A DNA stretch of 5,809 nt from a virus (taxonomy: Duplodnaviria > Heunggongvirae > Uroviricota > Caudoviricetes). Shown here piece after piece: positions 1 to 593 of this stretch. The notes beneath the pieces were generated by a model. The model did not search any database. It saw only the letters and a list, made by a program, of their open reading frames with translations, and had not been told where the DNA came from. Each line of letters opens with the position of its first letter. The stretch's first letter is position 1. Position numbers and translations under genes: made by a program. The stretch is taken from the IMG/VR virus record IMGVR_UViG_2531839233_000007; one strand, written 5' to 3'.

Positions 1-111
1 CTGCAAGAGGCTATTAAAGAACTGATACCAGGGTTTAGCAAAATCATCACCGACTACACGAGCCACCGCCATCGCAATTCCTACCGTTGTGAATGCTTCA
101 GGCCAGGTCAT
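1..111 (-). CDS. hypothetical protein, first 37 codons only (gene runs off the window start)
   Basis: ATG at 111..109 overlaps the TGA of the upstream ORF (ATGA junction); GGAGGA 9 nt upstream on the transcribed strand; frame open to position 1 (MTWPEAFTTVGIAMAVARVVGDDF...). Absent from the ORF track because it is truncated. Confidence 0.4.
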   Translation of the reverse strand, partial: MTWPEAFTTVGIAMAVARVVGDDFAKPWYQFFNSLLQ

Positions 112-365
112 CGTGAAACATCCTCCACGCTTATAAGTCCGCTTCGCTCCAGGTAGTCCATCACTTTATCCGGCAATTTGCAGCCCGGTTTCGCTTTCTT
201 CAGTTGACTAACCAATTGTTTAACCAGCATTGTCAATTCGCGAACTTGTTTCCCGGGCTCCCCTTTGCCCTGAAGCAGGGCAGCGCGGCAAGCGTTCCAT
301 CCCTCAGCATATGTTTCAGTTACACCATCGAGATGGCATGTAAGCAAATCCATTTCTTCCGGCAC
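108..365 (-). CDS. hypothetical prophage protein, 85 aa as drawn; possibly the C-terminal part of an amber-interrupted 161-aa ORF
   Basis: ORF track entry. Drawn start is GTG at 365 with no Shine-Dalgarno; the ATG at 353 has GGAAG only 2 nt upstream. Same reading frame as the 53-aa ORF 432..593, separated from it only by TAG at 434..432 and 22 open codons. Confidence 0.45.
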   Translation of the reverse strand: MPEEMDLLTCHLDGVTETYAEGWNACRAALLQGKGEPGKQVRELTMLVKQLVSQLKKAKPGCKLPDKVMDYLERSGLISVEDVSR

Positions 366-431
366 TACGGGCGCTGGAAAAACGGCATAGGGTGGCGTCC
401 ATTTTGGCGCTTTATCTCCAGCCGAACGCTG

Positions 432-593
432 CTACCAGTCATCCGGTTTGTATTCATAAAAATCACCAACTGGCTCTGCTTCCAGCGATGCCAGCGCAAT
501 CCGTGCCAGTTCCATTTGTTCACCACGGGTAAGCCCGTTTTCAACCGGATTTTTAATGAACAATTCAATACGTTCTTTGGTAATAGTGGTCAT
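432..593 (-). CDS. small hypothetical protein, 53 aa, ending at an amber TAG
   Basis: Hand translation of the minus strand: ATG 593..591, MTTITKERIELFIKNPVENGLTRGEQMELARIALASLEAEPVGDFYEYKPDDW, stop TAG 434..432. AAGGAG (complement of 600..605) lies 6 nt upstream. Below the apparent size cutoff of the ORF track. Confidence 0.5.
   Translation of the reverse strand: MTTITKERIELFIKNPVENGLTRGEQMELARIALASLEAEPVGDFYEYKPDDW

Follow-up and report, generated by a model that had tools for sequence, protein, structure and literature searches.

A phrog_660 gene of Sp10-type prophages is probably split by a single nonsense substitution in Escherichia coli O157:H7 and O111

The prophages of E. coli O157:H7 Sakai have been described as elements with scattered genetic defects, and according to the sections of Asadulghani et al. 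2009 (PMC2669165) used here, one of them, Sp10, excises, circularises and is transferred to K-12. The split gene analysed here fits this picture, as it is likewise a point defect in an Sp prophage that still excises and transfers. However, those sections evaluate core functions (repressor, integrase, replication, morphogenesis and others) and not this accessory gene, and its defect was not found in them.

Three further described systems are close to this gene. The first is the protein WP_000137958.1 (URC10131.1 in Escherichia phage vB_EcoS-666R9), which is encoded in that phage and in prophages of about 100 complete E. coli genomes. Its gene likewise lies after genes for a DnaC-like loader, DUF1627 and DUF977, and it shares with our gene the linker motif, the C-terminal module and about 99% DNA identity from the linker to the stop codon. 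It differs in having a tyrosine codon, TAT, where our gene has TAG, and a leucine instead of a serine as the penultimate residue, while the N-terminal module of about 35 residues is MTELTKKQLIEE... in the former and MTTITKERIELF... in the latter. The second is the group of Eaa and DUF551 (PF04448) proteins, which have the N-terminal module and the YEYKPxDWYQRS linker in common with our protein. One of them, P0008 (274 aa), is 80% identical across 68% of the query and has a DUF551 domain after the shared part, whereas our protein lacks DUF551 and instead ends in the module ...ELTMLVKQL...KLPDKxMDYL.... The third is programmed stop-codon read-through, of which the Q-beta A1 protein is an example. 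Here, the likeness is that a long stretch stays open behind an in-frame stop. However, the stop studied here is unconserved, has no allele-specific context and is a recent polymorphism.

The window, i.e., the whole stretch of 5,809 nucleotides that was analysed, carries its genes on the minus strand, and all features of the split gene are given in that orientation. The N-terminal fragment is an open reading frame of 53 sense codons (432..593), running from ATG 593..591 to the amber codon TAG 434..432. It is preceded by a Shine-Dalgarno sequence AAGGAG (600..605), read from the sequence, with a 6-nt spacer to the ATG, and the computed duplex with the anti-Shine-Dalgarno is -8.7 kcal/mol. Past the amber codon, the next stop in this frame is TGA 110..108, after 107 open codons. 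The whole region 108..593 thus comprises 486 nt, or 162 codons of one frame that is interrupted internally by one stop, and would encode 161 residues followed by a stop if codon 54 were a sense codon. The first 22 of the open codons (366..431) encode QRSAGDKAPKWTPPYAVFPAPV, a part of the conserved linker YEYKPxDW-Y-QRSxGDKAPKW. Thereafter follows the C-terminal remnant of 85 aa (108..365), from GTG 365 to the TGA; PGAP instead starts it at ATG 353 (81 aa). These closest in-frame starts lie 66 nt (GTG 365) and 78 nt (ATG 353) beyond the stop, and neither has a Shine-Dalgarno sequence, the computed duplex energies being +0.5 and -3.5 kcal/mol, respectively.

The earlier note, made from the letters of the window, had described the 53-aa frame with its strong AAGGAG, the TAG at 434..432, the 22 codons that stay open after it, and an 85-aa frame with no convincing ribosome-binding site of its own. 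Every one of its coordinates is correct, and the duplex energies agree with its view of the two starts. Its caution that 22 open codons are not rare by chance is also well founded, as 33% of the inter-stop runs in the six frames of the window are at least that long. Taken alone, the 22-codon stretch therefore means nothing as evidence for one gene. Runs that reach 107 codons amount to 13 of 472 (2.8%) in the same six frames.

The window is identical over positions 62..5749 to the lambda-like prophage Sp10 of E. coli O157:H7 Sakai, a prophage of roughly 51 kb that adjoins ttcA. In Sp10, the replication genes precede the split gene and a DNA methylase gene follows it. Window positions 593..108 correspond to 1934209-1934694 of Sakai. 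In the Sakai annotation, the 53-aa frame is ECs_1951 and the downstream frame is unannotated. In EDL933, PGAP calls both pieces, 53 aa as WP_000208018.1 and 81 aa from ATG 353 as WP_000365100.1, labels them as separate hypothetical proteins and flags neither as a pseudogene. The two RefSeq entries are thus annotated as independent proteins, though they are in all probability the halves of one gene.

The two ends of the window deserve a separate description. The left end is not prophage, as positions 1..75 are 100% identical to sbmC, a chromosomal gene for a DNA gyrase inhibitor. The sbmC and Sp10 sequences join through a 15-nt microhomology common to both, TGCGATGGCGGTGGC (76..62, minus strand), and the last 61 nt in the minus-strand sense (positions 1..61) belong to sbmC. 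This join is absent from all complete E. coli genomes searched and reflects either a chimeric assembly or a rare rearrangement through the microhomology; the window is apparently an imperfect assembly. At the other end, identity to Sakai Sp10 stops at position 5749, and positions 5750..5809 match other STEC genomes, which are 99.7% identical to the window overall. Both ends look like branches into other repeats or mosaics.

Some other features of this region can be noted here. About 300 nt upstream of the split gene, at approximately 869..1086 on the minus strand, lies a DUF4014-family gene. EDL933 has the identical sequence here, and PGAP calls the gene a frameshifted pseudogene in that genome, which makes it the second decayed gene of this small region. 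Directly downstream, the stop codon TGA 110..108 of the split gene overlaps ATG 111..109 of a small hydrophobic frame in an ATGA (108..111, minus strand). This frame (29..111 on the minus strand of the window, 3550..3633 in L001) encodes 27 aa in Sakai, MTWPEAFTTVGIAMAVALVVYSICRWG; the annotations of Sakai, EDL933 and phage 666R9 all omit it. The sbmC junction of the window changes it after residue 17. Outside the window, at 30958..33542 of the Sakai Sp10 sequence L006, the adjacent ECs_1974 and ECs_1975 (1365 and 1224 nt) are both named phage portal protein. The portal gene of Sp10 may be split or the second CDS misnamed; in the sections of Asadulghani et al. 2009 (PMC2669165) used here, the morphogenesis genes of Sp10 are scored as conserved.

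Comparison with other prophages and phages of E. coli reveals the origin of the stop. Uninterrupted homologues of 162-167 aa are found there, and they have the sense codon TAT (Tyr) exactly at the amber position. In phage vB_EcoS-666R9, a single 167-aa CDS (URC10131.1 / WP_000137958.1) occupies the equivalent place. In a pairwise DNA alignment it is about 99% identical to the window from approximately position 500 down to 62, with TAT opposite the TAG (432..434, codon 54). On the coding strand, the change from TAT to TAG is a T-to-G transversion at window position 432, seen as A-to-C on the plus strand. The earlier note had proposed an alignment with homologous prophages, and this alignment indeed recovers an uninterrupted protein of about 160 aa with a sense codon at the site, in agreement with its reading of one gene carrying a nonsense mutation. 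Neither of the findings that it named as refuting this reading was obtained: homologues do span the junction, and a consistent pattern of two genes is not seen among them.

The distribution of the two alleles was determined by searching an 81-mer centred on the codon, in both allelic forms, against 5,426 complete E. coli genomes. It was found in 277 of them: 173 exact matches to the TAG form, 102 exact matches to the TAT form and two divergent copies. Among the matches listed, the exact-TAG genomes include O157:H7 and O111 (O111:H8, NM and H-) strains, with Sakai and EDL933 among them, while the exact-TAT genomes are mostly human isolates, with no O157 or O111 label. A genome with the TAT allele is annotated with one 167-aa CDS, WP_000137958.1. 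In IMG/VR, a 50-mer was found in 19 contigs, of which 11 carry TAT and 8 carry TAG. An exact 50-mer had no match in a search of one genome per species; an exact pattern is uninformative on diverged copies. The two 81-mers differ solely at the third base of the codon, the 40 nt on each flank being identical.

These counts also decide whether the amber codon could be a sequencing or assembly error hiding a sense codon. Such a suspicion might be raised by the window itself, which looks imperfectly assembled with its 61 nt of sbmC joined through 15 nt of microhomology. However, 173 complete genomes, Sakai and EDL933 among them, share the identical TAG 81-mer although many laboratories assembled them independently and on many platforms, and the 81-mer recurs in 8 contigs of IMG/VR. 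The earlier note had wanted a base-call error excluded by re-sequencing; these copies show instead that the TAG is a genuine, heritable allele, and we regard the error reading as refuted, with practically no probability left to it.

At the protein level, the two pieces clearly fall on one family. The fused 161-aa translation, with tyrosine at codon 54, matches phrog_660 over residues 1-160 and profile positions 3-192 of 193 in one stretch (E 1.6e-44). Searched alone, the 53-aa piece falls on positions 3-60 of the same profile and the 85-aa piece on positions 130-192. Our gene is thus a full-length match to this family of unknown function, but the family architecture is interrupted by a stop in the window. 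When 5.8 billion proteins were searched, thousands of relatives came up, many of them named by their source as Eaa protein or DUF551 domain-containing protein. Judged by these sequence matches, the gene belongs to a mosaic, Eaa-like accessory set of lambdoid and P22-like prophages. The alignment shows that the family is itself a mosaic, with exchangeable N-terminal, middle or linker, and C-terminal modules.

The linker YEYKPxDW-Y-QRSxGDKAPKW, inside which the amber codon falls, is continuous in every aligned homologue. Its junction motif occurs in 21 of the best 120 cluster representatives, where the site is tyrosine in 20 and glutamine in one, P0001. All 20 real representatives with the motif thus have tyrosine, and they cover about ten different N-terminal variants, while their C-termini are of several kinds, including DUF551. 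Downstream of the site, the C-terminal remnant holds the most conserved module of the family (V-ELTMLVKQL...KLPDK-MDYL...).

Searches for a function gave nothing significant in Pfam, NCBIfam, PADLOC or a PDB-sequence profile search, and the PHROG matches were to function-unknown families only. In the Pfam scan of the fused protein and the intact homologue, no DUF551 domain was detected; the only match was unrelated and sub-threshold, with 14.9 bits against a gathering cut-off of 27. The AlphaFold2 model of the intact 167-aa homologue, built from an alignment of 41 sequences, is poor (mean pLDDT 57.9, pTM 0.27). Its best-predicted region is the part corresponding to the 53-aa piece, which forms a two-helix unit (pLDDT 65-81). 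The amber segment and the linker encoded by 366..431 have pLDDT below 50 and lie between this unit and the C-terminal part.

P0001 was considered as an intact copy with the N-terminus of the window, as it is a protein of 159 aa with 99% identity and glutamine at the site. It was rejected, since its DNA has TAG. Under code 11, translation of the corresponding DNA (L005 971..1447, on a 1.4-kb Logan contig, SRR27176603) does not give the deposited sequence, and probably the gene caller applied a code with TAG as glutamine to a short E. coli contig. At least one large public protein collection thus holds a spurious read-through protein, and calls of this kind are a source of spurious proteins.

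We consider it very probable that one ancestral gene was split by a single T-to-G nonsense substitution, which turned the tyrosine codon TAT at codon 54 into TAG. The amber allele is then an ordinary polymorphism or case of gene decay.

The earlier note had also raised a programmed read-through site. Under this reading, programmed or suppressor-mediated, the UAG would be usefully decoded and the 53-aa and 161-aa products would both come from one gene. The 107 codons that stay open after the stop are what such a gene would show, and the fourth base is C, a weaker termination context; P0001, a read-through protein produced by an automatic gene caller, could also be taken in its favour. The base after the stop modulates termination efficiency, and read-through is rare in bacteria (PMC5373646), the latter speaking against it. 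The glutamine of P0001 is an artefact, and the stop is unconserved, the site being tyrosine in all 20 real homologues. In addition, the TAG and TAT alleles do not differ in the 40 nt to either side of the codon, and therefore no dedicated read-through signal has evolved. Finally, no suppressor tRNA was found in the sequence covered: no tRNA genes were found in the window, and the annotated first 50 kb of the approximately 51 kb of Sp10 contain only tRNA-Ile(CAT) and tRNA-Arg(TCT). With a stop limited to one clonal haplotype, the same flanks as in the TAT allele and no suppressor tRNA in the window or in the first 50 kb of Sp10, the proposed read-through site is not supported, and useful decoding of the codon is highly improbable. 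A very low background of near-cognate read-through of the amber codon may still occur.

The history of the allele can be followed from its mosaic contexts. Downstream of a recombination boundary at 486..500 (minus strand), i.e., where identity breaks 52-61 nt upstream of the amber codon, identity between the window and the genes with the TAT allele is about 99%, while upstream of it the N-terminal modules differ. The window's own mosaic, with its MTTITKERIELF... module, carries TAG in all 167 copies in complete genomes, and the exact mosaic with TAT was found in no complete E. coli genome, the best match to a TAT version (99.5%) differing by that one base. TAG also occurs with the other N-terminal module (that of WP_000137958.1) in the IMG/VR contigs L013, L019 and L021. 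The IMG/VR copies with TAG thus have two N-terminal modules, always followed by the ...EDVSR C-terminus. The closest TAT haplotype, L018, has two differences from the window in the shared 440-nt block. Besides the amber codon, it differs in the penultimate codon, TTA-to-TCA (L-to-S), at L166, a residue at least 90% conserved in the family.

A single clonal haplotype, in STEC O157:H7 and O111, carries the stop. Beyond it, the remnant frame is intact in seven of the eight IMG/VR contigs with TAG, the eighth running off its contig, and in the complete genomes listed at 100% identity. The nonsense event appears to be recent, since the allele shows no further decay. The most economical reading is that the nonsense mutation arose on an MTELT-type gene, that lambdoid mosaic recombination would then have attached the amber block to a different upstream segment, and that the resulting prophage type is the one present today in O157:H7 and O111.

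A different change was seen in the TAT copy of the contig L014 (IMGVR_UViG_2563366939_000004). At approximately 3830..3879 on its minus strand, the C-terminal frame is changed to ...KKAKPAANCRIK, leaving 89 residues after the site instead of 107. It is either a second independent disruption or an indel in a draft sequence. With the frameshifted DUF4014 gene, it counts among the signs of decay that favour the nonsense reading.

The intact remnant could also be read as a functional fission into two working polypeptides, of which the N-terminal one would be translated from the strong Shine-Dalgarno sequence and the C-terminal one through re-initiation at ATG 353 or GTG 365. The modularity of the family, with its exchangeable N-terminal, linker and C-terminal parts, would suit such a split, as would the position of the amber codon in a low-confidence segment that separates predicted helical units. 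The frame downstream is open in every TAG copy that can be read to its end, and PGAP calls both pieces. However, neither start has a Shine-Dalgarno sequence (+0.5 and -3.5 kcal/mol), and 66-78 nt beyond a stop is far for termination-reinitiation in bacterial coupling. A young allele, only two substitutions away from the nearest TAT haplotype, would equally be expected to have an intact frame, and one of these two substitutions hits the conserved L166. The same split was also found in no diverged homologue among the aligned representatives. We therefore think that a working two-piece system is unlikely. Decidedly improbable, too, is that the amber allele was selected, either because STEC gained from losing or remodelling the full-length protein, e.g., if that protein is costly, or because a two-piece version works in which the 53-aa module acts alone. 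If true, such selection would explain why the haplotype survived the swap of its N-terminal module and why it is present in prophages of both O157:H7 and O111.

We thus return to the nonsense substitution as the preferred explanation and consider what it would mean for expression. Ribosomes starting from the strong Shine-Dalgarno sequence would terminate after 53 residues and release the N-terminal two-helix module alone. The downstream 107 codons would be essentially untranslated, apart from rare near-cognate read-through or re-initiation. Going by the sequence signals, this C-terminal part is probably not made in meaningful amounts, because it has no ribosome-binding site and its in-frame starts lie 66-78 nt past the stop. 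It can also be speculated that the premature stop may lower translation of the 27-codon frame downstream, if the two are coupled as the ATGA overlap alone suggests.

As the amber haplotype exists in two N-terminal or upstream mosaic contexts and in two unrelated STEC serogroups, and as Sp10 still excises and transfers, we infer that the split gene is dispensable for excision, circularisation and transfer of Sp10. Two observations stand against simple decay: both pieces are called as proteins by PGAP without a pseudogene flag, and the remnant is fully open and keeps the most conserved module of the family. One or both pieces may thus have retained a function, since the haplotype survived at least one recombination and spread to two serogroups with an open remnant that holds the conserved module.

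The base at window position 432 (A or C) is a clean marker, by which the intact allele of other E. coli can be told apart from the Sp10-type haplotype of O157:H7 and O111. Biologically, the split carries little weight: the decaying prophage pool of STEC is well documented, and this adds a further point defect to it, in a gene of unknown function. Its value is therefore minor and consists of an annotation correction and a lineage marker.
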